Notes: generated by a model from the letters alone, not told the origin. A DNA stretch of 64,000 bases from an uncultured virus (IMG/VR IMGVR_UViG_3300009551_000046) (IMGVR_UViG_3300009551_000046), one strand, 5' to 3'; positions 4,976 through 25,251 are shown, counted from the first letter of the stretch. Numbers and translations are program-made.

Positions 4976-5052
4976 TGGCGCGTAGCTCAGATGGTTAGAG
5001 CGTCGGATTTTGATTCCGAAGGTCTCCGGTTCGAAGCCGGACGCGCCGGCCA
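4976..5052 (+). tRNA. tRNA-Gln (anticodon TTG)
   Basis: Cloverleaf: acceptor TGGCGCG/CGCGCCG, anticodon arm TCGGA-TTTTGAT-TCCGA, T loop GGTTCGAAGCC, 3' CCA. Confidence 0.9.
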
Positions 5053-5093
5053 CCCCTTGCAAGCACCGGAGGCGAGGGGCTATTTTCCCCGCC

Positions 5094-5570
5094 ATGGCAG
5101 GATCAAAGAAGGGCGAGCGCCGCGGACGGAAGCCGGGCTCGCGCAACAAGAGAACGATTGAGCAGGAGCAGCGCGCGCTGCAGGAGCTCGCCGAGCAGGC
5201 GAGGAGCTCGACTAGAGCCGGCCGCAAGATCACGATCGCGAAAGACGAGTTGCTCGAGTTGATCCCGGTCTTGAAGGGGACCGTCGCGCAATTCCAGCAG
5301 GCGGCGATCGCCGATGGCAAAGGTCTCCCCGGAGGGGACAAGTTCGACCGCAATTTGTGGAAGGACTTGAAGGAGTGGGTCGAGGTTTATGCGAACGTCT
5401 GCCGATATACGGCGGAGTTTCAAAGCCCGAAGTACCGAGCGATTGCTGTCGCCATGCAGGATCCTGGCGCGCAGCGGGCGCCTGAACCGAAGGTCATCGA
5501 AGCGCCAACGGATGCCATCGGCCGCGAACGCCTTGCGAGCGCTGCCTACCTCAAACTCGTCAAGGGCTAG
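5094..5570 (+). CDS. terS: Terminase small subunit (putative)
   Basis: Directly upstream of terL; N-terminal GRKPGSRNKRT motif typical of TerS. Confidence 0.65.
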   Translation: MAGSKKGERRGRKPGSRNKRTIEQEQRALQELAEQARSSTRAGRKITIAKDELLELIPVLKGTVAQFQQAAIADGKGLPGGDKFDRNLWKDLKEWVEVYANVCRYTAEFQSPKYRAIAVAMQDPGAQRAPEPKVIEAPTDAIGRERLASAAYLKLVKG

Positions 5571-5573
5571 GCC

Positions 5574-7268
5574 ATGGCAAAGGCGCGCGCCGCCGAAGCC
5601 GAGCCGATCGAGGATTGGGCCGCGCTGATCGACTGGAAGGCGCCGCACTATGCGGACGTCCTCGAGGAGCGCGCTCGCCGGCTGCTGCGGCTGCGGGAAA
5701 ACCCCGATCTGCTGCCGGGGCTGCGGGAGTATTACCGCGAGCATCCCGCGGACTTCATCAATGATTGGGGCATGACGTTCGATCCCCGCAATGCAGACAT
5801 CGGCTTGCCGACCGTGATGCCGTTCATCCTGTTTCAGAAGCAGCGGGATTGGGTGCAATGGGTGATCGACCGCTGGCGCGCCCGGCAGCGGGGACTGTGC
5901 GAGAAGGCGCGCGACATGGGCGTGACCTGGCTTGCCGTCGGGCTAGCAGACACGCTCTGCCTGTTTCACGAGGGAGTCGTCGTCGGCTTCGGCAGCCGCA
6001 AAGCGGAATATGTCGACGAGATCGGCACCATGAAGCCGATCCTGCCGAAAGCGCGGTTCTTTATGGAGCACCTCCCGCGCGAATTCCGCGGTGACTGGGA
6101 GGCCTGGCGGGACGCGCCGAAGAACCGGATCGGCTTCCCCGAAACCGGCTCGATCATCACCGGCGAGGCTGGCGACAACATCGGCCGCGGCGACCGAACG
6201 ACGCTCTATTTCGTCGACGAGGCGGCGCACCTTCAGCGCCCGATGCAGACGGAGGCTGCGCTGTCGCAGACGACGCGTTGCCGCATCGATATGTCGTCGG
6301 TCAACGGCATGGCCAACCCGTTCGCGCAAAACCGCTGGAAATGGAACGACGAGCGCGTGTTCATCTTCGATTGGCGCGACGATCCTCGCAAGGACGACGC
6401 TTGGTATGCCCAGCAGGTTGAGGACTTCGACCCTGTCGTCGTCGCGCAGGAAATCGACCGCGACTATTCGGCTTCGGTGTCGGGGATCGTGCTGCCGGGC
6501 GCATGGGTTCGCGCCTGCATCGACGCCTGCGAGAAGCTAGGGATTGAGCCGACCGGAACGCCGCGTATGGCGCTCGACGTTGCAGACGAAGGCATCGACA
6601 AGAACGCGGCGATCGCCGCGAAGGGCGTCGAGCTAATTCACATTGAGCAGTGGAGCGGCAGGGGCAGCGACATCTTCGCAACGGCACAGCGCGCCGTCGA
6701 AATCTGCGATCTGCTCGGAATCCCGGAGTATCGATACGACGAGGACGGGCTCGGTGCCGGCATCCGCGGCGATATGCGGATCATCAACGAGCAGCGCATC
6801 GCTCTCGGGGCGAGGCCTCGGCAGGCGATCGGATGGCGTGGCTCGAACTCTGTCGTCGATCCCGAGGGCATCGTTAGGGGCACGAAGGGGCGCGACGGCA
6901 AGGACAAGGGCCGCAAGAACAAGGACTTCTTCGCAAACCGCAAGGCGCAAGGATGGTGGAACCTGCGCATACGTGTCGAGAACACGTACAAATGGGTCGT
7001 GAAGGGGATCAAGTGCGACCCGGACGAAATCCTGTCGATCCCGTCGAACCTGCCCGAAGCTATGAAGCTGATCGCGGAATTGAGCCAGCCGACCTATGAG
7101 ACGAACGGTCTCGGGAAAATCGTCATCAACAAGAAGCCGGACGGCATGCCGTCGCCGAACATGGCGGACGACGTGATGATGCTATTCGCCCCAGGAGATC
7201 CGGTTATCACCGTGTCGCCCGATCTGCTCCGGGCAGCTGCGCAACTGCCGCGCCGCCGGCGACACTGA
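5574..7268 (+). CDS. terL: Terminase large subunit
   Basis: EKARDMGVTW (Walker A variant), YFVDEAAH (Walker B), ALDVADEGID nuclease motif, C-terminal SPNMAD. Confidence 0.92.
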   Translation: MAKARAAEAEPIEDWAALIDWKAPHYADVLEERARRLLRLRENPDLLPGLREYYREHPADFINDWGMTFDPRNADIGLPTVMPFILFQKQRDWVQWVIDRWRARQRGLCEKARDMGVTWLAVGLADTLCLFHEGVVVGFGSRKAEYVDEIGTMKPILPKARFFMEHLPREFRGDWEAWRDAPKNRIGFPETGSIITGEAGDNIGRGDRTTLYFVDEAAHLQRPMQTEAALSQTTRCRIDMSSVNGMANPFAQNRWKWNDERVFIFDWRDDPRKDDAWYAQQVEDFDPVVVAQEIDRDYSASVSGIVLPGAWVRACIDACEKLGIEPTGTPRMALDVADEGIDKNAAIAAKGVELIHIEQWSGRGSDIFATAQRAVEICDLLGIPEYRYDEDGLGAGIRGDMRIINEQRIALGARPRQAIGWRGSNSVVDPEGIVRGTKGRDGKDKGRKNKDFFANRKAQGWWNLRIRVENTYKWVVKGIKCDPDEILSIPSNLPEAMKLIAELSQPTYETNGLGKIVINKKPDGMPSPNMADDVMMLFAPGDPVITVSPDLLRAAAQLPRRRRH

Positions 7269-7269
7269 G

Positions 7270-7298
7270 TAGACAGCGAATTCGACTCATGCCATATA
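7270..7298 (+). promoter_or_regulatory. Putative sigma70 promoter of intergenic sRNA
   Basis: TAGACA(7270-75)-N17-CATATA(7293-98), an alphaproteobacterial sigma70-like arrangement. Confidence 0.55.
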
Positions 7299-7303
7299 TC
7301 GAG

Positions 7304-7404
7304 CGTCGCTGCTTCCTTCCAAGTTGCTCGACAAGTTCTCCTTTCTTGGCGGAACGGAGAGATCAGGGCGGCGCTTCAGGAAACTGGAGCGCCGTTTTGT
7401 TTTT
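7304..7404 (+). ncRNA. Candidate ~100-nt trans-acting sRNA (CCUUCC loop, UUGGCG loop, terminator)
   Basis: Promoter upstream, hairpin TTCTCCTTTC-TTGGCG-GAACGGAGAG, intrinsic terminator; no plausible + strand ORF. Confidence 0.55.
7367..7404 (+). terminator. Rho-independent terminator
   Basis: GGCGGCGCTTCAG-GAAA-CTGGAGCGCCGTT followed by TTGTTTTT. Confidence 0.8.
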
Positions 7405-7472
7405 GACCCCATGACGCGGCCTTTCCTCCCGTGGTAAGGAGTTCAAAGGTTCAAGCGCGGAAGGGGTCGACG

Positions 7473-10400
7473 ATGGCGAACGGATGGGGCGGGAAGCGTC
7501 CGAACAGCGGGCCCAAAGTAGGGGCCGACGGCAAGGCGCTGAAGCCGTACAGCCGCCGAGATCAGTCGAAAAGTTCAAGCGACAGTTCAAGGAAGCCAGC
7601 CGACGCGCAGGTGATCTCGACGAAGCCGGCGACACCGAACCGCCCGATGTTTTCGCCCGAATCCGTCGAGGCGATCATCTCGGCGTTCCGCGAACTGAAG
7701 TCGCGCCGACCGCGTCCGAGGACGCCTGAAACCAATCCGTACATGATCCGACCGGAGCTCTTCGGGCCGGTCGCAGTCGACATCAAGAAGAGGAAGCCTA
7801 CCCTCGCGATGGATGCGGATACCGGGCTCGTGAGCGCGAATTCGTTCGCTGTTCAGGCCTGGCAGAACGGCTCGCTCGGCGGCGGTGACGATGCGTCCGA
7901 AGGCATGCTGTTCCTCGGCTACCCCTATCTATCCCAGCTGACGCAGCGCCCGGAATTCCGGCTGTTCGGCGAGATCATGTCGGAAGAGATGACTCGCAAA
8001 TGGATCGAGTTTCGCGGCACCGACGATGCGAGCACGAAGGAAAACGACAAGCCGAAGCGGCGCAACGACGACGACGACGAGGCAGATCGGCGCCGGCAAA
8101 AGACGGGCGAGAAGCCGCGGTCTGATGACCGGAACAAGGAGATCGAGCGCAAGGTTCTCGAACTGAAGGATTTCGCCGAGGAGCTCAAGCTGCGCAGCGT
8201 GTTCAAGGCGGTTGCTGCGCAGGACTCCGATTTCGGAATCGCGCATCTGTATCTTGATCTGAAGGGCACCGACATCGACAACCAGCGCGACAAAGAGAAC
8301 GCGATGTCGATCGGCAACGGCCGCGACGACATTTCGAGCAGCAAGCTGACGACCGGTTGCTTGGCCGGGCTGCGAACCATCGAACCGATTTGGTGCTATC
8401 CGACGGCCTACAATGCGTCGAACCCGATTGCCCCGGATTGGTATGACCCGGCCGTCTGGTATGTGATGGGCGCCGAAATTCACAAGACGCGGCTGCTGCC
8501 ATTCATCGGCCGGCCGGTGCCCGACATCCTGAAGCCGGCTTATGCGTTCGGCGGACTATCGATGTCGCAGATGGCGCAGCCATACGTCGACATCTGGCTG
8601 CGGACCCGCGAAAGCGTTGGCGAGATCATTCATGCGTTCTCCGTCATGGTGCTATCGACGGAGCTCGGCACGACGACCCAGCCAGGCGGTGCCGGCGGAG
8701 GCAACGGCGATATTCTCGCCCGCATGATGCTTGCGAACATGCTTCGGGACAACCAAGGCATGATGGTGATCGACAAGACATCGGAGGACTTCAAGAACAT
8801 CAGCGCGCCGATCAGCGGGCTCGACGATCTGCAGGCGCAGGCGCAGGAGCATATGTTTTCGGTCGGCCGGATCCCGGCGGTGAAGTTTGCCGGCATCCAG
8901 CCGAAGGGTCTGAACGCGACATCCGACGGCGAGATGCGCGCCTTCAACGACACGGTTCACGGCCGACAAGAGCATCTCTTTCGGCAGCATCTGACGACCG
9001 TGCTCGACATCATGCAGATTTCGCTGTGGGGCAAGCGAGATCCGGACATCACGTATGACTTTCTCCCGCTGCACGAGGAGACGCCGAAAGAGAAGGCGGA
9101 GATTCGCAAGATCGAGGCGGAGACCGATCAGGTCAGGGTCGACAGCGGCGTCGTGTCGCCCGAGGAGGTGCGGGCAAAGGTCGCGGCCGATCCTGAATCC
9201 GGTTTCCAGGGGCTTGATCCGGATGACGTTCCCGATCTGCTGCAGGAGGAGCAGGAGGGGTTGATCCCGGAGGGCGCCGGCAAGGGGCTTGAGGCCGAGC
9301 TCGAGGCCGGCGGCAAGCCGCGGGAGAGTCGCACGGCGCCGAAAAAAGACGACGGCGCCGAGGATGACGATCTCGACGACGACGACGAATTCGACGGCGC
9401 CTCTGACGAATGGCAGGAGGGCAAGCATCCGCGGGACCAAGACGGCAAGTTCGCGTCGTCAGGCGGCGGCGGCGGCGGAGGTGCGGCGGCGGAGCCGTCT
9501 CCCGAGGCATCGAAAAGCGACACGCTGAAGAAGGCGAAGCAGATGATCGAGGAGCAGGATCTCGCCGATCCGCAGCAACTCGCGTCTGTGATCGAGGCTG
9601 CGGAAAAGCACGGCCTCTCCGGCGTGATCATGAAGGGGCTGAAATCCGTTCAGGAGAAGGTCGGCAAGCCGCCGGCGCCGGCAGCGGGGAAGCCGCCGGC
9701 ATCGACGACCGGAGGGCCGAACGCCGCGCCGCAGCTGCCGCTGAAGAAGCTCGACGTATCGAAGCTCGACAAGGTCGGTCAGCAGATGGGATCGAACCCG
9801 GGCGGCGTCTATGTAGACCCGGCGAATGGCGAGAAGTTCTACGTCAAGAAGCCGAAGGGCCCGGCGCAGGTGAAGAACGAAATCGCTGCCGCGAAGCTGT
9901 ACCAGCTCGCCGGTGCGCACACGTTCGAATATCTCGACGCCGGACCCGATCATGTTGCAACCAAGATCGAGGCGCTGAAAAAAAAGAACGTCAGCGAGTT
10001 GTCTCCGGAGGAGCGCAAGGAAGCACAGAGGGACTTCGCGATACACGCCTGGCTTGCGAATTGGGATGCGGTCGGCACCGGAGGCGACAACGTTGGCGTC
10101 GGCGCCGATGGCAAGGTGAAGGTGCTCGACACCGGCGGATCGCTGAAATATCGAGCGCAGGGCGAGATGAAGGACTTCGGCGCAAGTCCGAACGAACTCG
10201 TGACGCTGCGCGACCCGAAACTGAATCCCGACGCTGCGGCGCTCTTCGGCGATATGTCTGAAGCGGACATGACGGCGAGTGCGGCACGCGTAGCCGACAT
10301 CCCCAACAACGCGATCCGTGATGTCGTGAAAGCTGCCGGCGAGAGCGAAGAACTCGCCAATACGCTGATCGCACGCAAGAACTCTATCGCGCAGAAGTTC

Positions 10401-11972
10401 GATCTATGGCCTGCAGGCGACACGAACCCCGAATGGGAGGCGCTGCATCCGCGCGGTCCCGGCGGCAAGTTCGCGAAAAAGGCAGGCGCCGAGGAGCCGG
10501 CGAAGCAGGAGGCGGCGGAGCCGGAGGAGAGCACCGAGGAGATCGGCGGCAAGGTCGAGATCGACATGCTTCTCGCGAAGAAGCCGATCGCGGGATCGAA
10601 CTATCGCAAGGCGCTCCAGAAGGCGCTGAAGTCGGGCGGCCTGTCTCCGGAGCAGACGAAGACGGCCGCGGAGAACCTCTATCTGTCTTGGCACAAGACG
10701 ATGGACAACTACGCGGCCAAGGGCGATCACGACACCGCGGGCAAGATCAAGGAGAAGCTGAACAAGATCTTCGACGACTACAATCTCGACGTGACCGCTC
10801 TGTGGGAAAAATTCGAGGCGATGTCGCCCTCTAGCCCCATGATGAAGCCCGCATCGGTCGGCAAGAAGAAGGAAAAGGCGAAGAGCGAGCCTCCGCCGGC
10901 GCCGGCGCCTGCCGCGCCCGAGCCGCCGCCTGCACCGCCCCCCGCACTGGAGCCGCCGCCTGCGCCTGCGAAGCCTGAACCGGCCAAGCCGGAGAAGAGC
11001 GCGGCTGCCAAGTTCTATCCGGAGCCGACAGAGGCCGACCTTGCGAAGGCCAAGAAGACGGCTGAGCTCAAGATGGAATACGTGAAGGGCTCGAAGCCGA
11101 AGGAACCCGAGGGGGTCGCGGTCGCGAACAAATTGATCGCCGACTTCAACGAGAAGTATGCCGGCAAGGAGATCACTGATCACGATGAGCTCGTCGAGAA
11201 GGTGGCGCAGTTCAAGGGATTGAGCGACGCGATCAACGCGATGGGGGTGATGGAGGAAAAGGGTGCGCAAGAAGCAAACGCGGCAGCCCTAGCCAAGATC
11301 AAGCAGGTTCAGAAGGAAAAGGCGGAGCAGGAGGCCAAAAAAGCCGCCGAGGAAGCGGCCAAGCACGCCGAACGCAACAAGAAGTTCATGAGTGAACTCG
11401 GCATCAGCGAGAAGCAAGCCGAGGGCATGTATGGACTCGCGCAGATGCTCGGCATGTCCGGCAAGGATCTTGTCGGCGAGTTCAAGCACTACGAGGAGGA
11501 AGCAAAGGGGCTCGGCTATCCGATCTCCGGCTTCCAATGCGCGGTGATCAAGAACTACAGCGGGAGCGGCTATCAGGCGGTGAATTCTGCTCTGCGGTCC
11601 GGAGCCTGGACGCCGGCGCAGCACGCGTATGTGTCGATGGTGAACAAGGCGCTCTCCGAAATGCCGAAGCATACCGGGGTCTGCAAGCGCGGCACGGACC
11701 TCACGGCTGCGCAGATCGCTCAATACAAGCCCGGCCATATCGTCCAGGAGAACGCGTTCCTGAGCACGGCATCGACGGGGTCGGGCTTCAGCGGGAATGT
11801 CCGCTTCACGGTCACCGCGATCGGAAAGCGGGGAGCGTCGATCCAAAAGCTTTCGCTGCATCCGAGTGAAAACGAAGTGCTGTTCCAGGCGCGGACCTTC
11901 TTCAAGGTGAACAAGGTCGAGAAGAAGGACGGCTTCACCGAAATCCACATGGAAGAGTGGGAGGAGCACTGA
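7473..11972 (+). CDS. Portal protein (DUF1073-type) fused to an atypical kinase-like domain and a C-terminal ADP-ribosyltransferase
   Basis: Portal: FLGYPYLSQLTQRPEFR...EMTRKWI, VPDILKPAYAFGGLSMSQ, IPAVKFAGIQPKGLNATSDGE. Kinase: GSNPGG/YVK/NE/WD..DN/DTG. ART: KRG/FLSTA/ENE. One uninterrupted ORF. Confidence 0.85.
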   Translation: MANGWGGKRPNSGPKVGADGKALKPYSRRDQSKSSSDSSRKPADAQVISTKPATPNRPMFSPESVEAIISAFRELKSRRPRPRTPETNPYMIRPELFGPVAVDIKKRKPTLAMDADTGLVSANSFAVQAWQNGSLGGGDDASEGMLFLGYPYLSQLTQRPEFRLFGEIMSEEMTRKWIEFRGTDDASTKENDKPKRRNDDDDEADRRRQKTGEKPRSDDRNKEIERKVLELKDFAEELKLRSVFKAVAAQDSDFGIAHLYLDLKGTDIDNQRDKENAMSIGNGRDDISSSKLTTGCLAGLRTIEPIWCYPTAYNASNPIAPDWYDPAVWYVMGAEIHKTRLLPFIGRPVPDILKPAYAFGGLSMSQMAQPYVDIWLRTRESVGEIIHAFSVMVLSTELGTTTQPGGAGGGNGDILARMMLANMLRDNQGMMVIDKTSEDFKNISAPISGLDDLQAQAQEHMFSVGRIPAVKFAGIQPKGLNATSDGEMRAFNDTVHGRQEHLFRQHLTTVLDIMQISLWGKRDPDITYDFLPLHEETPKEKAEIRKIEAETDQVRVDSGVVSPEEVRAKVAADPESGFQGLDPDDVPDLLQEEQEGLIPEGAGKGLEAELEAGGKPRESRTAPKKDDGAEDDDLDDDDEFDGASDEWQEGKHPRDQDGKFASSGGGGGGGAAAEPSPEASKSDTLKKAKQMIEEQDLADPQQLASVIEAAEKHGLSGVIMKGLKSVQEKVGKPPAPAAGKPPASTTGGPNAAPQLPLKKLDVSKLDKVGQQMGSNPGGVYVDPANGEKFYVKKPKGPAQVKNEIAAAKLYQLAGAHTFEYLDAGPDHVATKIEALKKKNVSELSPEERKEAQRDFAIHAWLANWDAVGTGGDNVGVGADGKVKVLDTGGSLKYRAQGEMKDFGASPNELVTLRDPKLNPDAAALFGDMSEADMTASAARVADIPNNAIRDVVKAAGESEELANTLIARKNSIAQKFDLWPAGDTNPEWEALHPRGPGGKFAKKAGAEEPAKQEAAEPEESTEEIGGKVEIDMLLAKKPIAGSNYRKALQKALKSGGLSPEQTKTAAENLYLSWHKTMDNYAAKGDHDTAGKIKEKLNKIFDDYNLDVTALWEKFEAMSPSSPMMKPASVGKKKEKAKSEPPPAPAPAAPEPPPAPPPALEPPPAPAKPEPAKPEKSAAAKFYPEPTEADLAKAKKTAELKMEYVKGSKPKEPEGVAVANKLIADFNEKYAGKEITDHDELVEKVAQFKGLSDAINAMGVMEEKGAQEANAAALAKIKQVQKEKAEQEAKKAAEEAAKHAERNKKFMSELGISEKQAEGMYGLAQMLGMSGKDLVGEFKHYEEEAKGLGYPISGFQCAVIKNYSGSGYQAVNSALRSGAWTPAQHAYVSMVNKALSEMPKHTGVCKRGTDLTAAQIAQYKPGHIVQENAFLSTASTGSGFSGNVRFTVTAIGKRGASIQKLSLHPSENEVLFQARTFFKVNKVEKKDGFTEIHMEEWEEH

Positions 11973-12163
11973 TGTCGACCGGACCGAAGACGCGCGCGGA
12001 TGACAATTGGGGCGTCGGACAACAAGCCGACGGGTCAATCAACGTCATGACGGAGGAGCAGGCGCGCGAGGCGATGGTGCGCCGCGACGCCGAGGATGAA
12101 GCGTGGAGCAGCATGATGGACGGCGAGGATCTCGACGACATCTCCGATCTCAACGACGAGTGA
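11972..12163 (+). CDS. Small acidic protein coupled to the portal-ART gene (possible inhibitor)
   Basis: TGATG overlap, GAGGAG RBS, 63 aa, D/E-rich. Confidence 0.6.
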   Translation: MSTGPKTRADDNWGVGQQADGSINVMTEEQAREAMVRRDAEDEAWSSMMDGEDLDDISDLNDE

Positions 12164-12196
12164 TCCGCAAAAGTACGGGTGCCCACAAAATGCCCC

Positions 12197-12225
12197 TGGA
12201 CACCGATCGACGAAAGGGAAAATAA
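12197..12225 (+). promoter_or_regulatory. Putative sigma70 promoter
   Basis: TGGACA-N17-AATAAT. Confidence 0.4.
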
Positions 12226-12297
12226 TCCCTCCTGACGATGCGTCGTCCGCATAGCCGCCAAAGCGTGACGAACGGTGTTATGTCTCTCAATATGCCC

Positions 12298-12345
12298 CAG
12301 GAGGGGTGAAGGGTCGCCGACCGGTCCTTCACCCCTTTCCTGTTT
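12298..12345 (+). other. Strong intergenic hairpin (terminator or attenuator candidate)
   Basis: CAGGAGGGGTGAAGG ... CCTTCACCCCTTTCCTG inverted repeat followed by TTT. Confidence 0.45.
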
Positions 12346-12360
12346 CGGAGGTCGGAAGCG

Positions 12361-12588
12361 ATGACATCAGAGCAGAAGAAGTGGTTAGATGAGCACCGCG
12401 CCGAGGGGTATCGTGTGATCGGGACCGCGCCAGGCGGTTACCGATTCGCCCGGAGGGGCATGCTGCATGCCGACGGGCAATTCGAGCTCCAGCTCGGCGC
12501 GCGTCGTCCCGCGGTACGAGTCGGAAGTTTCGAAGTCGGTATCCTTGAGCCGATCACGCAACAGACAATGATGAGGGGGCCTTCATGA
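12361..12588 (+). CDS. Hypothetical protein
   Basis: GGAGG RBS; ATGA coupling to the next gene. Confidence 0.65.
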   Translation: MTSEQKKWLDEHRAEGYRVIGTAPGGYRFARRGMLHADGQFELQLGARRPAVRVGSFEVGILEPITQQTMMRGPS

Positions 12589-13061
12589 TGTTCGTCGGAT
12601 GGGTTGCTGTTCCGGGTGCGTTGTTCTTGTGTGCCGGTCTCTTCGCAATGAAGGTGCCGTCGGCTCGGGCGTCGTTCGGCCCGGCAAGCCTCGCCTGCGG
12701 AGCTCTCCTGTTATGGGTGTCGATCTGCATAGTTAGCGCCGCGACGGCATTCGGGCGCGATCTCAGCGGCCGCTATGCGCAATCCAACCTGAAAGGATGG
12801 TTCGATCAGCTGCGCAGCGGAAAGGGACCGTGCTGCTCTGACGCCGACGGCTATGCAATTTCCGACCCGGATTGGTCGATGGATGGCGGCAAGTACAGAG
12901 TCCGCATTGCCGGCGAGTGGCGCGACGTGCCGCCGGATGCGGTAATCACCGAGCCGAACCGGGTCGGCAAGGCGATGGTTTGGCCCCTCTTCCTTTACGA
13001 GAACGGCCAGCCGAAAGAGTTCCGAGGAATTCAGTGCTTCATGCCCGGGGCTCAAATTTAG
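12585..13061 (+). CDS. Membrane-anchored or exported Cys-containing protein
   Basis: Two hydrophobic N-terminal segments then WF...CCSDADG...VPPDAV...CFMPG. Confidence 0.65.
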   Translation: MMFVGWVAVPGALFLCAGLFAMKVPSARASFGPASLACGALLLWVSICIVSAATAFGRDLSGRYAQSNLKGWFDQLRSGKGPCCSDADGYAISDPDWSMDGGKYRVRIAGEWRDVPPDAVITEPNRVGKAMVWPLFLYENGQPKEFRGIQCFMPGAQI

Positions 13062-13100
13062 AAGTGATTTCAACGAAAGCATCCAAGCAAAGCTAAGGCA

Positions 13101-13352
13101 ATGGTGAAGCAGTCGCCGACGTCGCCCGGAGCAAGTCTAGTTATCCGCGACGTCGCGCGACAGCTGCGCGACATGCGCGAGAAGTGGAACATGAGCCGCG
13201 AAGATCTCGCGGAGGTCTCGGGTGTCTGCGCTCGCACGATCTCTGAAATCGAGAGCAACAGCCGGGCGCATGAGGCGAGCATCAGGACGATCTGCAATAT
13301 GGCTGATGCTATGGGGTGCGACATCGTCGTCGAACTCAAGTTCAGGGGCTGA
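13101..13352 (+). CDS. XRE-family HTH regulator
   Basis: LRDMREKWNMSREDLAEVSGVCARTISEIE...SIRTICNMADAMG. Confidence 0.8.
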   Translation: MVKQSPTSPGASLVIRDVARQLRDMREKWNMSREDLAEVSGVCARTISEIESNSRAHEASIRTICNMADAMGCDIVVELKFRG

Positions 13353-13354
13353 CG

Positions 13355-14155
13355 ATGCCGAAGCGACCGAAGTCGAAAGTTCTGCGGCCTGTTCACCCGA
13401 ACGCTGGGCTGCAGGCATGGTATCGGCGCCGGCTGCTCGCCCTCGTCGACGAGATGCACGATTCCTACCTCTATTGGCTCAAGGCGGCTTATGCTGCGAA
13501 CCCGCCGGCGATCGCGCAGGACGAATTGCCGTCGGCGGCACTGCAGCGCGCGCTGAAGCGACTCGTCAAACGGTGGCGGAAGAACTTCGCGACGGCGGCC
13601 GACGAGCTCGCCGTCTACTTCATGACGAAGATCGAAAAGCGCTCGCGCGCGACCCTGATGAAGATCCTCCGCGATGGCGGCTGGACGGTCGAGCTCAACA
13701 TCACGCCGGCGTTGCGCGACGTCATCCGGGCGTCGGTGATCGAGAACGTCGCGCTGATCAAGTCGATCCCGGAGCAGTTTCACACCCAAGTCGAAGGGCT
13801 CGTAATGCGGTCGGTCACCGCGGGCCGAGATCTCGCCCCGTTGACGAAGGCGCTGCAGAAGCAGTTCGGGGTCACGCGGCGCCGCGCCGAGCTCATTGCG
13901 CGCGATCAGAACAACAAGGCGACCGCGGCGATCACGCGGGCCCGCTATGTCGATCTCGGGCTTACCGAGGCGATCTGGCTGCACTCCGGCGGCGGGAAAC
14001 AGAAGCGCCCGACGCATGTCGCGAACTCCGGAAAGCGCTTCGACGTCGTCAAGGGATGGTTTGACCCGGATCCCAAGGTGCGGCGGTTCATTCACCCGGG
14101 CGAACTGATCAACTGCCGGTGCGTCTGCCGGCCGGTCGTCAAGGGGTTCTCATGA
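13355..14155 (+). CDS. Head morphogenesis protein (MuF/SPP1 gp7 family), short form without toxin domain
   Basis: RAELIARDQNNKA, W.H...RPTH, HPGELINCRC. Confidence 0.9.
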   Translation: MPKRPKSKVLRPVHPNAGLQAWYRRRLLALVDEMHDSYLYWLKAAYAANPPAIAQDELPSAALQRALKRLVKRWRKNFATAADELAVYFMTKIEKRSRATLMKILRDGGWTVELNITPALRDVIRASVIENVALIKSIPEQFHTQVEGLVMRSVTAGRDLAPLTKALQKQFGVTRRRAELIARDQNNKATAAITRARYVDLGLTEAIWLHSGGGKQKRPTHVANSGKRFDVVKGWFDPDPKVRRFIHPGELINCRCVCRPVVKGFS

Positions 14156-14442
14156 ATGAAGCTGCCATGAACATGATCGAGCAGATCAGCGAGGCGATCG
14201 GCGGCCGCAAGTATTGGGTACGGTCCCTGACCGATCCCAATTCACCGATCTGCGAACGACTCGTCGAATTTCACCTTGAGGCGACCGGCGAACTCGACGA
14301 GGACGTCCGAGGGGCGATCCTCGCCATTCTCCGGGAGCACTTGCCGACACCGCATATGTTGCGGCTGTTCCTTTCCGACGGCCGCGGGGATTATTGCGGC
14401 AAGGTCTATGCGATTCAGCAAACGGCGAAGGCGGTGTCATGA
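14152..14442 (+). CDS. Hypothetical protein
   Basis: ATGA overlaps at both ends. Confidence 0.55.
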   Translation: MNEAAMNMIEQISEAIGGRKYWVRSLTDPNSPICERLVEFHLEATGELDEDVRGAILAILREHLPTPHMLRLFLSDGRGDYCGKVYAIQQTAKAVS

Positions 14443-14666
14443 AAACTAGGGAGTTCAAGGCGCTCAAGAGCGCTTACGAAACGCCGGATGGCTGGGGGTT
14501 GTTCAGCGCCAAGACGACAATGCTTCTCGCCAAGCGGGGCTACTTCGCGGAGGCGCAGCATCCCCGTTTCGGCAAGCAATGGCGCCTGACTTCGGCCGGC
14601 CGTGAGGCCTTCGAGAAAGCTAACAGCGCCCGCGATCAGATCGCTGGACGTCCGCGCCGGGGATGA
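14439..14666 (+). CDS. Hypothetical protein (winged-helix-like)
   Basis: ATGA overlap; LAKRGY...WRLTSAGR. Confidence 0.55.
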   Translation: MKTREFKALKSAYETPDGWGLFSAKTTMLLAKRGYFAEAQHPRFGKQWRLTSAGREAFEKANSARDQIAGRPRRG

Positions 14667-14706
14667 TTATCCTCTAGCGTACCGCCAAGAACCGAGAATC
14701 GGATCG

Positions 14707-14901
14707 ATGACAGCAGAGCAGGAACAGATCGAGCGGCTTCGCATCGCTCTTCAGAAGTGCGCCGGTGCGCTCATGGCAAGCGCCGACGGTCGCGCGAACA
14801 TCACTTTCAACGGCGAGTTCTCGTATTTGGGTCGCATGACGGTCAACGAGATCCTCGACGAGGCCAACCAGGCGCTCGAGCTCACAAGGGGCGACCGTTG
14901 A
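14707..14901 (+). CDS. Hypothetical protein
   Basis: MTAEQEQIERLRIAL; coupled to the next gene. Confidence 0.5.
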   Translation: MTAEQEQIERLRIALQKCAGALMASADGRANITFNGEFSYLGRMTVNEILDEANQALELTRGDR

Positions 14902-15269
14902 AAGAGCGGTTTGTCTCGAAGGCCTTCGAGATCGTACCGGGGATGCCGGACTTCTATCGGGCAAGCTTCGGGAATTGCGTGTTTGTCCTGAAGGATGCGG
15001 CGGAGACATCCTTTCTGCTCTGCGAGCTCGACGACTGTGTTTTCATCCCGCCGCTCTATGACCCCGACGGCAACATCGATTCGGGCTGGGACGATCGCCT
15101 CGTCGGCTGCACCATTACGAACCCGCGGACGCAGCTGCTGCTGACCGCGGCCGAAGTCGATGCCCTCTCGGTCCCCAAGATCGAGAGGCCGTGCCGGATC
15201 AACAAGCGGGTGCCGTGTCACACCCCGCAGCGCTGCATTTTCGAATGCGCAAGACAGGAGGCGTCATGA
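14898..15269 (+). CDS. Hypothetical protein, paralog of 15266-15526
   Basis: TTGA overlap start; NC.F.LKD.A.T.F..C.L.DC.F.PP shared with the next gene. Confidence 0.65.
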   Translation: MKERFVSKAFEIVPGMPDFYRASFGNCVFVLKDAAETSFLLCELDDCVFIPPLYDPDGNIDSGWDDRLVGCTITNPRTQLLLTAAEVDALSVPKIERPCRINKRVPCHTPQRCIFECARQEAS

Positions 15270-15526
15270 ACGACGACATCAGGGATAGGACGATCGAGAT
15301 CGCCGAGGGCACCGCGAGCTATTATAGCGACCGGCTCGTTAACTGCCGGATCATCATGAAGGACGAGGCGGCAGACACCCGATTCTTTTCCTGCATCCTG
15401 GTCGATTGCATGTTCGACCCGCCTATCATCATCGATAGCCCTGAGGGGCGCCCGATGGTCAATCCGGTTTGGGACATCCGCCTGTTCGACAGCGTCGTGA
15501 ATTCAGGGGGAGGACAGTTCAAGTGA
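15266..15526 (+). CDS. Hypothetical protein, paralog of 14898-15269
   Basis: AGGAGG RBS, ATGA overlap. Confidence 0.7.
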   Translation: MNDDIRDRTIEIAEGTASYYSDRLVNCRIIMKDEAADTRFFSCILVDCMFDPPIIIDSPEGRPMVNPVWDIRLFDSVVNSGGGQFK

Positions 15527-15789
15527 CCGAACAGTTCAAGATCCCCGCGCCGCTTTCTTCCGGCGCTGTCGCCGTGCTCGGGCAGCTATATGTCAACGGC
15601 CCGACATGGGACGGCAACATCACGAGCAAGCCGGGCCGCGGTGAGCTCGTTGCCGCCGGGCTAGCTTGGCACGCGCACGGCTACGCCTCGCTCACACCGG
15701 AGGGCGTCTACGTCGCGGTGAATTGGGACCGCGCGCAGCTGCGGGACCGGCACGATCAGCGATGGCTCGAAAAGTTGAGGCAGTCATGA
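15523..15789 (+). CDS. Hypothetical protein
   Basis: GTGA overlap; GPTWDGNITSKPGRGELV. Confidence 0.6.
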   Translation: MTEQFKIPAPLSSGAVAVLGQLYVNGPTWDGNITSKPGRGELVAAGLAWHAHGYASLTPEGVYVAVNWDRAQLRDRHDQRWLEKLRQS

Positions 15790-16004
15790 AACCGAAACTT
15801 GCCAACCTGCAGCACGGCATCAACCTGATCCCCGAGGATCTGCATTGGCTGATCGGCAAGGGGCGCATGAACCCCGACGAGAAGCTCTACGGCTGCGTCA
15901 TCCTTGACCAAGGGGGCAACACCGTCGGCGAAGGGGAAAGCGACGACCTTATGGATGCCGTCGCCGAGGCGCTCGCCGATTTGAAGCGGAGGACCGCATC
16001 ATGA
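15786..16004 (+). CDS. Hypothetical protein
   Basis: ATGA overlap, GAGG RBS. Confidence 0.6.
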   Translation: MKPKLANLQHGINLIPEDLHWLIGKGRMNPDEKLYGCVILDQGGNTVGEGESDDLMDAVAEALADLKRRTAS

Positions 16005-16186
16005 TCCTATTGGCTGCAGCATGGCTCCTCGTCGTCCAATCTTGGACCGGACAGGACAATCGGCCGGTGCCAATCGCCCGGTATTCTACGGGCAAAAGTT
16101 GCTCGGACGCGATGATCGCAGCGACGGCGGACCGCAACCAAAGCGGGCTGCGCGTTTACGCCGCTTGCATTCCCGTCGATGAATGA
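16001..16186 (+). CDS. Small exported-type protein
   Basis: GGAGG RBS; hydrophobic N-terminus, two Cys. Confidence 0.55.
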   Translation: MILLAAAWLLVVQSWTGQDNRPVPIARYSTGKSCSDAMIAATADRNQSGLRVYAACIPVDE

Positions 16187-16470
16187 CCGCCCCTCGCATC
16201 TCCTGCTGCATCCCTTTCTGCACAAGAACCTCTAAGAACCCCCATAGATGGGGGGAATGGATATGCGGGCCCCATTGGAGCGCCGTTCCCAAGGAATTGA
16301 GGCAGAGGCGGGCGGCGGCGCGTCGGATGTCTAAAAAATATTCCCAGCTAGCGGAGGGAAAAACGTCCCCGAGGGTGTGGACGAAATGCGAGGCGGCGCG
16401 CACATTGGAGTGGAAGATTTGGGATCGCTGCCGGGCGGCGGCGATCGAGGCGGCGGGAGGCATTTCATGA
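16183..16470 (+). CDS. Cys/His zinc-binding hypothetical protein
   Basis: CCIPFC...ICGPHW. Confidence 0.6.
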   Translation: MTAPRISCCIPFCTRTSKNPHRWGEWICGPHWSAVPKELRQRRAAARRMSKKYSQLAEGKTSPRVWTKCEAARTLEWKIWDRCRAAAIEAAGGIS

Positions 16471-16928
16471 CGTCGTTCGATCCTGACATTCACGTTCCCG
16501 GCCTGTGGGGCTGCGCAAAGTGCGGCTTCACGCTGTTGCAGTCTAACCTCAATGCGAAGGACGGCAGCATCACCGCGCGCGACGAGCCGGGGGACAAGTG
16601 CCCGAATGACGGCGCGCCGCTGTGGCGGGTGACATGGCGGCAGCAAGCCGAGGAGATGGGCAGGCGCTGCGAGGAGGCGATCGAGCGGGCTGTCGCTGCA
16701 GAGGGCGACAAGGGCCGTCCGGATCCTCGGCTGCTCGGCGCCGCGCTGCTCTGGCTGCGGAACCACTACGAGTCCTCGGCGGAAACGCTGTCGCCGCTGA
16801 CGGTCGCAGTGCTCGCCCGCGCCGACGAGATCATCGCCGATTGCAAAATCGACATTTCCGACTCAATCCGGCTGCGCGAGAGTTATCCGGTGCCTGAGAT
16901 CGGGCACCCGGAGAAGGCGCAAGGGTGA
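16467..16928 (+). CDS. Zinc-ribbon hypothetical protein
   Basis: VPGLWGCAKCGF...CPNDGAPLWRVTW; GGAGG RBS. Confidence 0.65.
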   Translation: MTSFDPDIHVPGLWGCAKCGFTLLQSNLNAKDGSITARDEPGDKCPNDGAPLWRVTWRQQAEEMGRRCEEAIERAVAAEGDKGRPDPRLLGAALLWLRNHYESSAETLSPLTVAVLARADEIIADCKIDISDSIRLRESYPVPEIGHPEKAQG

Positions 16929-16932
16929 CGTC

Positions 16933-17133
16933 ATGACGATGCTTGCGGTTGCCGGCGAGTGCATTTCGGCTGGCGAGGCGGTTTGCTCGGGCGATGGCGC
17001 GACGGTCTACCGGGCGAGCGGCCTGCGGGGGCCGACCGTATCGGTGATCGTCGGCACGGCTCTTGAGGACATCCGGGAGGGGTTCCGGGTGCAGATTTCA
17101 GATGCCGGGGAAGTCAGAGAGGATGACGCGTGA
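16933..17133 (+). CDS. Hypothetical protein
   Basis: In operon orientation, 66 aa. Confidence 0.45.
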   Translation: MTMLAVAGECISAGEAVCSGDGATVYRASGLRGPTVSVIVGTALEDIREGFRVQISDAGEVREDDA

Positions 17134-17266
17134 AAACGAGATGGCGCTACAAGAAAGGTCTGAAGCCGCGGCCGGGCCGAAAGCCGAGTAGGGTCTATCG
17201 ACCATTGCATGAACGGCGCGGTCCGTGGCGACGATGGATGGGCGGGAGCTCGGAGAGGAAGGCGAC

Positions 17267-17524
17267 ATGAATTGGCTCGACATCATCGCTTGGATGCACG
17301 GCACCGGGCTCACAATCGTCCTAGCCGCGGCGCCAGGCGTCATCGGCTGGGCTTACAACGCACGCCGGCGGCAGCGGCTCGAGGACACCGGATGGAAGGT
17401 GATTCAGGAGGCCGATGCCTACGACCGGATGCTCGACGAGGGATCGAGCCCGCGGTCGCCGAACGGCGACGACTACAATGCGATGCACGCGATCCTCATG
17501 CAGATTGAGCAGGGGTTGCGGTGA
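17267..17524 (+). CDS. Small membrane protein
   Basis: GAGG RBS; one hydrophobic helix. Confidence 0.55.
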   Translation: MNWLDIIAWMHGTGLTIVLAAAPGVIGWAYNARRRQRLEDTGWKVIQEADAYDRMLDEGSSPRSPNGDDYNAMHAILMQIEQGLR

Positions 17525-17817
17525 TGACGGAGCCCGAGAGGCTCGTCGGCTGTGCCATCGTCCGGGAGGGCAAGACGCATCCTAACCCGGAAGGCCTGCG
17601 CTTCGGCCCGACATCGCATTACGAGGTTCGCGCCGGGCTGCGCGATGCCGACCCTGCGCGCTCGTGCCCGACGGACATCGAAGGCTTTCTGACGAGCGCC
17701 GGTCGGTTCGTCACCCGGGAGGAAGCGATCCCGATCGGTGTCGCGGCCGGCCAACTGCACCCGCGCTGGGCCGGCGCGCGCGGCCGCAAACTCCTCTCCT
17801 CTGATCTGAATTGGTGA
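17521..17817 (+). CDS. Conserved-type phage hypothetical protein
   Basis: EGFLTSAGRFVTREEA...AGQL...LLSSDL, a motif style common in phage ORFs. Confidence 0.65.
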   Translation: MMTEPERLVGCAIVREGKTHPNPEGLRFGPTSHYEVRAGLRDADPARSCPTDIEGFLTSAGRFVTREEAIPIGVAAGQLHPRWAGARGRKLLSSDLNW

Positions 17818-19070: not shown

Positions 19071-19081
19071 GGGAGGGAAGC

Positions 19082-20233: not shown

Positions 20234-20239
20234 CCGACA

Positions 20240-20467: not shown

Positions 20468-20468
20468 C

Positions 20469-22887: not shown

Positions 22888-22914
22888 TTCCGCCAAATCA
22901 GGAGAACGTCGAAA

Positions 22915-23386: not shown

Positions 23387-23638
23387 ATGAGTGCAAAACT
23401 CCAACCTCTTACGGCCGGAACGGTCCCTCGGATTTCCGAGATGGGGCCGTTTCAGTTTTGGGCGCGCGAATTGATCGCCGCGACCGATGAGGACCGCACC
23501 GCCGCAGAGCAGGGGACGCTATCGCCCCAGCGGAGCGAGGAGCTCGCCGCAGCCGGGATCGCCGCGCGCGAGCGTCTCGCCGAGATGACGGTCCCCGGCT
23601 ATCAGGAATGGATGACGCACCGGAGGGCCTGCAATTGA
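23387..23638 (+). CDS. Hypothetical protein
   Basis: ORF between the tRNAs and the protease gene. Confidence 0.4.
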
Positions 23639-25251
23639 CCCGCTTCGATCGTCTGGCGCTCGACAAGAACTCCGTCCGGTCGTTCGACGTCGACGGGCGG
23701 ATGCGGGTGAAGGTCGCCAACATCTCGAAGGCGAACATCTGCCCGTACCGAGGGGACGAAATTCCCGGCTGGGAAGAGCTCGGGCTCGACCCGAAGCGCA
23801 TCTATCAGATGTTTCGCGCGCCGGAGGAGCTCAAGGCGGGCGCTCCGACGTTCAACGGGATCCAACTGCTGAAGAAGCATGTCCCGGTCGATGCCGACGA
23901 TCATCAGATGTACGACATCGTCGGATGCACCGGGACAGAAGCGAACTTCGACGGAACGTACCTGACGAACTCGCTTTCGGTTTGGACGAAAGAGGGCATC
24001 GATCTTATCGAGTCCGGCGATCAGTGCGAATTGTCCTGCGGCTATCATTACGTGCCGGACATGACACCGGGAAATTTCGGTGGTATGCACTACGACGGCG
24101 TGATGAGGAACATTGAGGGCAATCATGTCGCCCTCGTCGAAGAAGGACGGGCCGGACCCGATGTCGTCGTCGGCGACTCCGCCCTGATCAAGAGGGAAGA
24201 CGAGATGTCGAAGCCGACCCGCCTGCAGTATTCGCTCCTGATGCGCACCGCCGCGGCGATCAATCCGCTGCTCGCGACCGACGCGAAGGTCAATTACGCC
24301 CCGCTGTTCAAGGGCGTGACGACCAAGAACTTCAAGGAGCGCAAGCCCGCGCTGCTCACCGGCATCAAGACGGCGATCGCAGGCAAGACGATCGCGAAAG
24401 ACGCCTCCGTCGAACATCTGGCGCACATGCTCGATCAGTTCGAGGCGGCGCCGGCGCTAGCCGACAAGAGCATGGACGAGTCGGTTTCCGGTCCGCAGCA
24501 CCGCGCCATGGAAGCGGCCGCGCAGGGACAATCGACCCTCGGCATCCCGGAGAACGTCGGCGAGGAGTTCGCCGAGGCGGACAAGGGCAAGACGTTCGGC
24601 GACAGCCTGCGCGCCTGGGCCAAGGACAAGGGCTTCGAGCTCGCCGACGAGGACTACGCGGCCCTCGACGAGATGCACAAGTCCTGCCGCGACGAGAAGA
24701 TGCCCGACGCCGAGGACGAAGATCCCGACAAGAAGAAGGAAGAGGAAGAGGGCGCGGCCGACGGCGACGACGGCGAGGCGGAGGACGAAGCCGAGGGCGA
24801 GAAGAAGGACGACGACGAGGACGACGGCAAGAAGAAGCCGGCGGCCAAGGACAAGCAAGCCAAAGACAAGGGCAAAGGCGCTATGGACAAGAAGGTCATC
24901 ACCCAAGACGAAGTGAACCGCGCCATCGCCGCCGAGCGTGCGCGCAGCCGCGAAGCCGTCGAAGCCCGCGCCTTTGTGCGGCCGTACGTCGGCGACGTCT
25001 CCCTCGCGCTCGACAGCGCCGAGGACATCTATCGTGCGACGGCCAAGGCGCTCCGGATCGAGGACGCCGAGACGGTGCACGCCTCCGCGCTGAAGTCCCT
25101 GATCAAGGTGACCGGCGAAGCCCGCAAAAAGGCGATGGCGTCCGACAGTTCGTCGTTCTTCTCGGCCGGGCCGAACCTCGCGCAGGACGCCGCGGCGAGC
25201 GACACCTTCACCAAGATGTTCCCGGGGGCATCGCGCATCGGCGCGGTGTAA
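23608..25251 (+). CDS. Prohead protease/scaffold (DUF2213 family)
   Basis: [42 protein letters not shown], acidic scaffold-like C-terminal half. Confidence 0.88.

Follow-up and report, generated by a model that had tools for sequence, protein, structure and literature searches.

The stretch of DNA analysed here (the window) comprises 64,000 nucleotides of an uncultured virus (IMG/VR IMGVR_UViG_3300009551_000046). Positions 7473..11972 on the plus strand are occupied by one ORF, P0001, which encodes a portal-kinase-like-ADP-ribosyltransferase (ART) polyprotein of 1499 aa plus stop. Translation of this interval revealed no internal stop. ORF finding gave 7431..11972 (+), with a GTG start and 1513 aa, as the longest call; the ATG at 7473 is nevertheless the likelier start, because GGAAGGGG sits 6-13 nt 5' of it and alignments of homologs begin at its residue 1. 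The IMG/VR contig L001 showed 100% identity over residues 1-1499, and Logan contigs of run X1 spanning 7400-8531 and 8502-12100 showed 0 differences and 0 gaps. The three assemblies are identical base for base, with the reservation that X1 may be the source sample and possibly not independent of the window. GC3 is 0.80 throughout the ORF. An intact single portal-cargo ORF of a soil phage is thereby confirmed, and the preliminary description, which had placed portal and cargo in one 1499-aa ORF, was correct in this respect: no stop interrupts it, three assemblies agree, and 54 of 98 cargo homologs have the same layout. The elements it had named (portal, acidic linker, kinase motifs, Pro-rich spacer and ART motifs) were likewise each found where it had put them.

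A portal is the ring by which DNA passes into and out of the capsid. The N-terminal ~100 residues (7473..7772, +) form a low-complexity stretch, with P at 14%, S at 13% and R at 11%, and lie ahead of the portal fold, outside the PF06381 match. For the portal of phage Pa193, the first 93 residues are described as not seen in the structure (PMC11456595, available in part). The portal domain itself (PF06381, Phage_portal_3, formerly DUF1073) covers residues 151-553 (7923..9131, +) with E 2.9e-66 and 224 bits against a Pfam gathering score of 33.8. Matches to the portal family phrog_146 (E 5e-94) and, over residues 291-610, to the structurally proven portal gp19 of E217 (8fvh, 9b41; E ~1e-33) bear out the initial assignment of this domain; the Pam3 portal was detected with E 2.6e-8. 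In the 48 other ORFs scanned a portal family was never the best PHROG match, and the MuF ORF gave a weak secondary match to portal phrog_2662 (E 7.1e-8). The 64-kb window, outside which ~8 kb of the ~72-kb genome falls, yielded no portal besides P0001, which adjoins the large terminase gene.

This terminase gene (5574..7268, +; phrog_5989 E 4.5e-6) lies directly upstream and shares 71.6% nt identity with that of Burkholderia phage Magia. On the other side, a small acidic ORF of 68 aa (11957..12163, +) begins within the 3' end of the portal ORF. Its homologs follow directly after the ART stop in the contigs L004, L005 and L006, and in L006 the homolog makes up the N-terminal part of a longer ORF (538 aa) that has two copies of the HPR motif described below and a weak ART-PolyVal match. 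A 158-aa ORF and an HTH ORF downstream are missing from relatives. Among the neighbouring genes scanned there was no recognisable immunity gene or ADP-ribosylhydrolase. The MuF head-morphogenesis gene (13316..14155, +; phrog_324 E 3.7e-79) encodes 279 aa with PF04233 at residues 158-271 (E 3.8e-11), and the domain scan revealed no other domain, in agreement with its earlier reading as the short, cargo-free form. P0001 lacks PF04233 and therefore does not belong to the MuF polymorphic toxins, which are defined by an N-terminal MuF domain; here MuF is a separate gene. A prohead protease/scaffold candidate (DUF2213) is encoded at 23608..25251 (+; PF09979 E 4.1e-47; phrog_2229 head maturation protease E 1.1e-118).

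The kinase-like domain comprises residues ~760-985 (9750..10427, +; ~225 aa), as delimited by an alignment of homologs (A1) and an AF2 model. Its motifs are GSNPGG (773-778), FYVKK (789-793), NE (802-803), NWD (863-865), DN (872-873) and LDTGG (885-889), and K792, E803, N863, D865, N873, D886, G888, G889 and R968 are invariant in the 20 homologs of A1. Comparison of the model (pLDDT 91.7) with known structures revealed CtkA (3akj), the cell-translocating kinase of Helicobacter pylori, as the best fold match (Z 14.0, rmsd 3.5, 198 aa), with further matches to CotH (Z 12.2), MavQ (11.6), PI4KIIa (11.4) and HipA (10.9). The best 50 matches listed comprise kinases and kinase-like enzymes throughout, with at least 44 chains at Z >= 8. 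Foldseek also placed CtkA on top (E 1.9e-5), and among the matches listed it returned kinases or phosphotransferases with E <= 1.2e-4. The domain is thus predicted to have a bilobal kinase fold of the PKL superfamily, which supports the kinase call made from motifs. In the model, K792, E803, D865, N873 and D886 fall on the secondary-structure elements where a kinase fold would place them; K792 would be the beta3 Lys, E803 the alphaC Glu, D865/N873 the catalytic D..N pair and D886 the metal-binding D. Since both protein kinases and lipid kinases (MavQ, PI4K) occur among the fold neighbours, the fold leaves the substrate undecided.

This domain matched no Pfam, NCBIfam or PADLOC model, and the literature yielded no published description of it; its family comprises at least 5,881 clusters. 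HipA_C (PF07804) was considered and rejected, with weak matches in 4 of 20 members (best E 0.0026) and none in the domain of the window. Kinase-PolyVal, which we take to be Pfam PF18762, was rejected as well, with no match at E <= 1 or E <= 10. In the parts of Iyer et al. 2017 available to us, Kinase-PolyVal is described as a kinase whose C-terminal subdomain is absent and which occurs chiefly in Verrucomicrobia-Chlamydia and Bacteroidetes (PMC5512222), whereas in the model of the P0001 domain the C-terminal part is retained and is helical, with helices spanning model residues 159-226. The order of Gly-loop, Lys, Glu, D..N and D is kept as in CtkA and in HipA/PI4K/CotH; identity to these proteins, however, is at most 19%, and no family model exceeds its threshold.

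At the C-terminus, an ART of the R-S-ExE type (11409..11969, +) is recognised by PF03496 (ADPrib_exo_Tox; residues 1343-1493, 35.5 bits, cutoff 23.4) and by PF01129 (22.6 bits, cutoff 22.3). The motifs KRG (1405-1407), FLSTAS (1429-1434) and ENE (1466-1468) supply the putative catalytic residues R1406, S1431, E1466 and E1468, which correspond to the invariant R402, S427, E462 and E464 of an alignment of 23 sequences (A2). Tre1 of the Serratia proteamaculans T6SS is closest both by sequence (6dre, E 2.6e-13) and by fold (6drh_B, Z 19.4, rmsd 2.6 A, 178 aa, 27% identity), and R1406, S1431-T-A-S and E1466-N-E1468 align with its YRG, STS and EAE. Further fold matches were XopAI (Z 19.0), HopU1 (17.3) and Vis (15.8). 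Family model, catalytic motifs and predicted fold agree in identifying an R-S-E ART, as had been proposed.

Past the C-terminal helices of the portal, an acidic, Gly-rich linker without a family match covers residues 611-646 (9303..9410, +); D+E amount to 28% and G to 17% of residues 590-690. It leads to a first joint motif, W-x-E-x-x-H-P-R-x-x-x-G-K-F, at residues 647-660 (9411..9452, +), and a spacer at 661-759 (9453..9749, +), which consists of a Gly run, a ~50-residue stretch and a Pro/Ala-rich stretch. The spacer has no Pfam match and a single weak match to phrog_38358 (E 0.0023, residues 652-698). A second joint motif, W-E-A-L-H-P-R-G-P-G-G-K-F, lies at residues 988-1000 (10434..10472, +) and is probably flexible, because the model pLDDT is 50-62 there. 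A conserved ~14-residue HPR motif, [WF]xExxHPRxxxGKF, thus stands on both sides of the kinase cassette. In the relative P0028 residues 661-988 are missing and one motif is retained, and 57 of the 147 portal HSPs against relatives terminate at residues 650-665; judged from these alignments, the motif sits where homology with relatives breaks. No published description of the motif was found, in a comparison that covered the available text of Iyer et al.

Between the second motif and the ART, a helical bundle at residues 1025-1117 (10545..10823, +; AF2 pLDDT ~88-94) is kept in 14 homologs and gave generic helical fold matches only (Z up to 9.1). It is followed by a Pro/Ala-rich linker predicted to be disordered (residues 1128-1173; 10854..10991, +; pLDDT under 50), with 46% P in residues 1140-1185, and by a helical region at 1177-1312 (11001..11408, +) including one ~73-residue helix (model helix H233-305). 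This region is conserved jointly with the ART, homologs aligning from ~residues 1150-1186 to 1499.

A search for relatives revealed 362 long portals (824-2624 aa) at E <= 1e-20. Portals 70-81% identical to P0001 carry NUDIX, Acb1, a Zeta-toxin kinase, a histidine phosphatase, an ART only or no cargo; the portal of L010 (67% identical) has none. The cargo of the 29 relatives scanned contained PF03496 in 22, NUDIX in nine, Acb1 in four and DRAT in one; Zeta_toxin/AAA_33, His_Phos_1, ART-PolyVal or ddrB-ParB were found in others. These alignments show the cargo to be modular and, as far as sequences tell, rapidly swapped among relatives, including the anti-CBASS nuclease Acb1, whose presence in four relatives gives it an anti-defence flavour. 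From the cargo side, 54 of the 98 homologs have PF06381 in the same polypeptide, on ~70-kb phage contigs, whereas eight have these kinase-like and ART modules on a PF04233 MuF protein, a known anchor inside the head; the contrast that the preliminary description drew between portal and MuF loading is therefore real in comparative terms.

P0001 carries a kinase-like domain and an ART on a portal, between terminase and MuF, and is thus a polyvalent protein. It resembles the polyvalent proteins with portal or MuF anchors (Iyer, Burroughs, Anand, de Souza, Aravind 2017), which combine several effector domains and a head component in one polypeptide. The novelty that the preliminary description implied for portal-borne effectors was overstated. 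As far as the available text of these papers goes, PBECR, 2H, InPase, NUDIX and ART domains fused to portal domains are on record and their injection has been proposed (Iyer et al. 2017, PMC5512222; 2022, PMC9503650), and the concept is also embodied in the portal-InPase of PB1/E217. The Pbunavirus portals gp18/gp19 of PB1, E217 and Pa193 belong to the PF06381 family and have a C-terminal extension, with an enzyme domain known in PB1 (PF18823 InPase, E 2.2e-43), and the gene order portal-MuF-protease-capsid is common to Pbunavirus and the window. In contrast to the PB1 portal (769 aa, one small cargo domain, no HPR motif), the cargo of P0001 extends over 850 aa and contains two enzymes. T4 Alt reaches the head as a protein of its own, directed there by a capsid-targeting sequence at its N-terminus, whereas the ART of P0001 is part of the portal polypeptide. 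Alt is described as an ART held in the head, injected with the DNA and modifying host proteins (PMC5512222, PMC9503650). MuF-fused polymorphic toxins of temperate phages, as presented in the available text of Jamet et al. 2017 (PMC5576092), share variable C-terminal domains on a conserved head protein, but P0001 has the portal as its anchor, and the MuF protein of this phage carries no cargo.

We consider it probable that P0001 is a polyvalent effector packaged into the virion with the portal as anchor, and that its cassettes are freed by proteolysis and ejected alongside the DNA, in the service of host takeover or counter-defence. It is extremely improbable that the long ORF arose in assembly or annotation by the joining of a normal portal gene to a separate cargo gene: one metagenomic source and the end of the L010 portal at ~residue 640 equivalent would fit such a fusion, but the agreement of window, L001 and the X1 contigs (X1 may be the same sample), the continuous layout in the 54 homologs and the even GC3 speak against it. 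A phage-borne polymorphic toxin, with a growth-inhibiting ART and kinase that kill or arrest competitors or the host, would draw on Tre1 as nearest ART, on C-terminal placement behind a conserved joint motif as in polymorphic toxins, and on MuF-ART toxins with immunity proteins (PMC5576092, PMC11699363, in the parts available). That the closest ART fold relatives (Tre1, HopU1, Vis) are antibacterial or host-targeting toxins counts against the effector explanation. Yet Tre1 is PAAR-linked and has an immunity partner, of which none is recognisable near P0001; no immunity gene is conserved downstream, where the 158-aa and HTH ORFs are missing from relatives, the small acidic ORF acts in L006 as an anchor module rather than an inhibitor, and relatives bear the non-toxins Acb1 and NUDIX. 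We regard this explanation as quite improbable.

Less remote, though still unlikely, is packaged cargo that never leaves. It would act within the capsid or in the cell that makes the virions, perhaps modifying phage or host proteins late in infection, or would serve as internal protein mass of the head. The cargo is covalently joined to a protein that remains in the virion and would therefore have no exit unless cut. The extensions of the E217 and Pa193 portals (residues 529-765), as far as the available accounts go, have no density (PMC10329688, PMC11456595), which also fits retention. In the relative P0008 the first HPR motif (residue 720) comes after Acb1 (residues 562-706), and cleavage at the motif would therefore keep Acb1 on the portal. 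Acb1, NUDIX and ART cargo, however, would be most sensible where host signalling molecules or targets are, the same modules occur on MuF, for which delivery has been proposed (PMC5512222, available in part), and rapid cargo exchange among close portals resembles an arms-race effector and not a structural part.

In the preferred reading as a portal-anchored effector, P0001 is the portal protein of the phage, and its C-terminal extension consists of two exchangeable cassettes, one an atypical protein-kinase-like enzyme and the other a mono-ADP-ribosyltransferase of the arginine (R-S-ExE) type, connected by flexible linkers with a conserved HPR joint motif in each. In E217 and Pa193 the C-terminal barrel of the portal projects into the head, according to the available text (PMC10329688, PMC11456595). 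Because head assembly starts from the portal, every subunit would bring its cargo into the procapsid, in up to 12 copies. Presence in virions and copy number, as well as cleavage, ejection and substrates of the cargo, are points that we infer. Most likely, the cargo would be released by proteolysis during head maturation, a step in which the portal polyprotein would have to be a substrate of the DUF2213 candidate, and then be expelled along with the DNA. It would act before any phage gene expression, in host takeover or counter-defence.

The portal polyprotein P0001 is encoded in a single reading frame, which runs without interruption from 7431 or 7473 to 11972 on the + strand of the window (GC 63%, zero N). 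Since GGAAGGGG precedes the ATG at 7473 and homolog alignments begin at residue 1 of P0001, the 1499-aa form was used. The portal family PF06381 matched residues 151-553 (E 2.9e-66), the PHROG annotated as portal protein (phrog_146) matched with E 5e-94, and solved portals of the Pbunavirus phage E217 matched across residues 291-610 with E of about 1e-33. The large terminase gene (5574-7268) lies directly upstream; downstream follow a short MuF gene (13316-14155), a DUF2213 protease/scaffold gene (23608-25251) and, farther on, the genes for major capsid protein, sheath, tape measure and baseplate. The MuF ORF bears PF04233 alone, as expected for the short, toxin-free form described for it in the preliminary description, and gave one weak secondary match to the portal family phrog_2662 (E 7.1e-8). 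For none of the 48 other scanned ORFs of the window was a portal family the top PHROG match, and we therefore regard P0001 as the functional portal of this contractile-tailed phage. A 1119-aa profile, phrog_30637, matched the portal with its first 306 positions (P0001 residues 332-664) and residues 15-229 of the DUF2213 protease (23608-25251) with its positions 729-941; since it spans both, portal and prohead protease are combined in a single protein in some phages.

The fusion of portal and cargo could in principle be an assembly artefact. The P0001 protein is encoded on a 72,121-base contig, and the IMG/VR contig L001 showed identity to P0001 across all 1499 residues. Logan contigs of sequencing run X1 spanned 7400-8531 and 8502-12100 with zero differences; X1 is possibly the source sample, so that these contigs represent an independent assembly and not an independent sample. 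Runs from three other studies (X2-X4) contributed pieces of 151-322 nt only, difference-free except one, none of which spans a domain junction. Apparent joints at 7772>12063, 8931>10901 and 10524>11976 had sides of just 21-23 nt and were treated as foreign sequence. The stronger argument against an artefact, over the agreement of assemblies, is the conservation of the layout in dozens of relatives. Among cultured phages, megablast with 5000-25000 of the window revealed as sole match the terminase stretch of Burkholderia phage Magia, and tblastn with the whole P0001 matched the portal part alone, with 0 of 757 records reaching a coverage of at least 80%.

The preliminary description had read P0001 as a portal followed by a kinase-like domain and an ADP-ribosyltransferase (ART); sequence matches and predicted folds bear out these three assignments, and every motif it listed is present in P0001 where it had been placed. 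The kinase-like domain (residues ~760-985) is a mobile module common to most cargo homologs. An alignment of 20 diverse copies showed ten invariant residues (G773, K792, E803, N863, D865, N873, D886, G888, G889 and R968). AlphaFold2 gave a confident model (pLDDT 91.7, pTM 0.86), in which the lysine lies at a strand end, the glutamate in the next helix, the D..N pair in a loop and the last aspartate after a short hairpin. In this model the invariant residues occupy the positions expected in a kinase, and we infer their roles. In a VIA-align superposition on 48,161 chains, which supported the kinase fold, the model came closest to Helicobacter pylori CtkA (Z 14.0, rmsd 3.5, 198 aa, 19% identity), followed by CotH (12.2), MavQ (11.6), actin-fragmin kinase (11.4), PI4KIIalpha (11.4), HipA (10.9) and Fam20C (10.7). 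Foldseek also detected CtkA (E 1.9e-5).

No curated model for this domain was found in Pfam, NCBIfam or PADLOC, and no PHROG covers residues 760-985; HipA_C matched weakly in 4 of the 20 aligned members, and a profile search of the PDB revealed weak partial matches only (LepB 4jw1, E 0.018). A profile search of 1.84 billion representatives detected at least 5,881 kinase-like proteins at E <= 1e-3 (a lower bound, counted as clusters at 50% identity), 3,233 of them at E <= 1e-30. The 127 newly listed proteins range from 290 to 7,004 aa (median 1,403). Neighbours in the ESM Atlas were clusters without names, mostly viral, one of which carries PI3_PI4_kinase on 16% of its members. The module is thus very widespread yet uncurated, and merits curation and biochemistry.

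At the C-terminus, PF03496 (35.5 bits, cutoff 23.4) and PF01129 matched residues 1343-1497, and phmmer detected Tre1 (6dre; E 2.6e-13), Vis (6.3e-10) and ExoT. R1406, S1431 and E1466/E1468 align with YRG, STS and EAE of Tre1, and these four residues are unchanged across 23 sequences. In the model of residues 1005-1499 (pLDDT 80.3), a helical bundle (1025-1117) is followed by a disordered proline-rich linker (1128-1173), a helical region with one helix of ~73 residues and, last, the ART domain (1313-1499). The predicted ART fold held when superposed on Tre1 (Z 19.4, rmsd 2.6, 178 aa, 27% identity), and further superpositions were found with XopAI (Z 19.0), HopU1 (17.3) and Vis (15.8). In the C2/C3 group, ARTs of the ExE type usually modify arginine. 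For the helical bundle, the structure search gave generic helical matches only (Z up to 9.1).

A search with residues 640-1499 revealed 98 proteins, of which 54 (the query counted) bear PF06381, eight PF04233 and one PF04860. Scanning 29 portal-bearing relatives with Pfam identified PF03496 in 22, NUDIX in nine, the anti-CBASS nuclease Acb1 in four and DRAT in one. A search with the portal part only detected 362 long relatives (824-2624 aa) at E <= 1e-20, whose cargo includes Zeta_toxin/AAA_33, His_Phos_1, ART-PolyVal and ddrB-ParB. These searches among PF06381 portals, of the kind suggested in the preliminary description, revealed C-terminal cargo that varies among relatives (NUDIX, Acb1, Zeta, ART and others). 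The cargo differs greatly even among portals 70-81% identical to that of P0001: P0099-P0111 (~1083 aa) have no Pfam cargo, P0028 carries the ART only, P0114 NUDIX and Zeta, and P0121 a histidine phosphatase. In L010 (2-1651), a portal ORF with 67% identity stops near the position of residue 640 in P0001, free of cargo, and is followed by an unrelated 244-aa gene; within the clade, this locus could serve as a natural control without cargo. In phage PB1, the portal (769 aa) combines PF06381 with the InPase domain PF18823. In cultured phages, kinase-like and ART modules were found in other large proteins near head genes, for example ORF50 of Morganella phage Mecenats66, which lies beside a NUDIX gene and upstream of terminase and portal. 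Several relatives contain inteins (Hint_2 / Intein_splicing) inserted into the portal domain near the position of P0001 residues 461-463 (L006 1269-8945; P0130, P0131, P0145, P0147, P0150, P0159, P0161, P0165, P0167 and P0173).

A motif of ~14 residues, [WF]xExxHPRxxxGKF, occurs twice in P0001 (residues 647-660 and 988-1000) and nowhere else in the 64-kb window in any frame. Among the 98 cargo homologs, 37 have two copies, 18 one and one three. Portal alignments of P0001 to relatives comprised 147 HSPs, 57 of which terminate at residues 650-665. P0028 has one motif copy, around which it aligns first to residues 14-660 and next to 989-1499; it equals P0001 minus the kinase cassette. In P0084 the motif follows the MuF domain, and in L006 it follows a small acidic module at the N-terminus, a homolog of the 68-aa ORF (11957-12163). 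The motif falls in low-confidence, flexible stretches of the models and is not obligatory, lying within 60 residues of 39 of 277 kinase-like domains. Comparison of the two motif-coding stretches revealed microhomology only at the DNA level (9 and 13 identical bases). We read the motif as a probable site of cassette exchange. A broader reading, in which it would be the universal joint of a plug-and-play scheme for capsid loading, both a cassette-swap junction behind portal, MuF or acidic module and a maturation cut site, seems rather unlikely to us. In P0008 Acb1, not the portal, precedes the first motif, so that simple cutting at the motif would leave Acb1 unfreed.

The 68-aa acidic ORF (11957-12163, +) overlaps the stop of the portal gene. 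Homologs were found directly after the ART in three relatives (L004 1678-1962, L005 9367-9591 and L006 8945-10561); a small acidic ORF thus follows the ART in 4/4 loci that encode one, and none is present in the nearly identical pair L007 and L009. An ART immunity protein was considered for this ORF and dropped, because the L006 homolog forms the N-terminal end of a longer ORF with cargo of its own: after the acidic segment, this 538-aa ORF contains two HPR motifs and then a match to ART-PolyVal that is weak (E 9.2e-6) and stays below the cutoff. The small acidic module looks like a third kind of anchor, which would be cargo-free in the window phage. The 158-aa and HTH ORFs downstream of the portal gene showed no conservation in relatives.

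Further features were observed in the window. Between MuF and prohead protease, 14155-23608 comprises ~9.5 kb of small + strand ORFs, eight of which were sampled with PHROGs and Pfam, with 20908-21846 as sole match (phrog_15779, unknown function, E 2.1e-41); the corresponding interval in L005 is ~1.3 kb. This region is a putative accessory-gene island inside the head module. The tail sheath phrog_205 extends over two adjacent ORFs, 33523-34635 (profile positions 10-159) and 34645-35508 (191-430), and in the former a module of ~90 aa also matches phrog_38233, a tail-fibre family; the sheath would be either split or interrupted by an inserted domain. A module of ~70-90 aa (phrog_38233 / phrog_21413 stretch) recurs in four structural proteins (31436-32032, 32444-33439, 33523-34635 and 41381-42802) and possibly represents a decoration or Ig-like domain that these proteins share. 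In the recombination/replication block, a 569-aa ORF (56433-58142, -) matches the C-terminal part only of a large-terminase PHROG (positions 316-505 of 555, E 7.3e-20); its product is a putative second protein of the terminase-nuclease type, encoded at a distance from the packaging genes.

P0001 displays the fused architecture, intact catalytic motifs and a single-portal context, and cargo is polymorphic across relatives, with a known family of anti-defence enzymes among it. According to sections of two structural reports on the E217 and Pa193 portals, the C-terminal barrel points into the head, and residues 529-765 are without density (PMC10329688, PMC11456595); the cargo would therefore sit inside the capsid. 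Up to 12 copies would be packaged, the linkers would be cut by the DUF2213 protease or another activity, and the freed enzymes would exit with the DNA and modify host targets early in infection. Such delivery is a plausible hypothesis backed by comparative evidence, and its general form is already published: passages of Iyer et al. 2017 (PMC5512222) describe PBECR, 2H and InPase joined to portal or MuF domains, and suggest that such proteins are injected. Together with Iyer et al. 2022 (PMC9503650), that work covers portal fusions of PBECR, 2H, InPase, NUDIX and ART domains. According to a passage of a 2026 preprint, proteomics detected a large polyvalent protein in virions of phi24B, and the title of a 2025 preprint announces an ejectosome protein inhibiting CBASS. 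In the literature searched, which left out most subscription journals, neither an experimental test of portal-borne cargo nor a description of the kinase-like domain or the joint motif was found.

If the broader reading of the joint motif were true, any protein positioned behind it would enter the virion, in up to 12 copies, and then be injected; in phage heads, the motif would correspond to the VENN or DPxGL junctions known from polymorphic toxins, and the kinase-like domain would represent a large class of injected phage effectors that has gone unstudied. Such a simple, conserved joint might also help to load selected proteins into capsids. The architecture raises a structural question, namely the fate of ~1 MDa of tethered protein (12 x ~850 aa) at the portal crown, and the clade offers a natural experiment, with near-identical portals that carry different cargo or none. 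If delivery is real, these phages would put enzymes into the cell ahead of any phage gene expression, and in relatives the delivered set would include the anti-CBASS Acb1, at the time when abortive-infection and signalling defences trigger.
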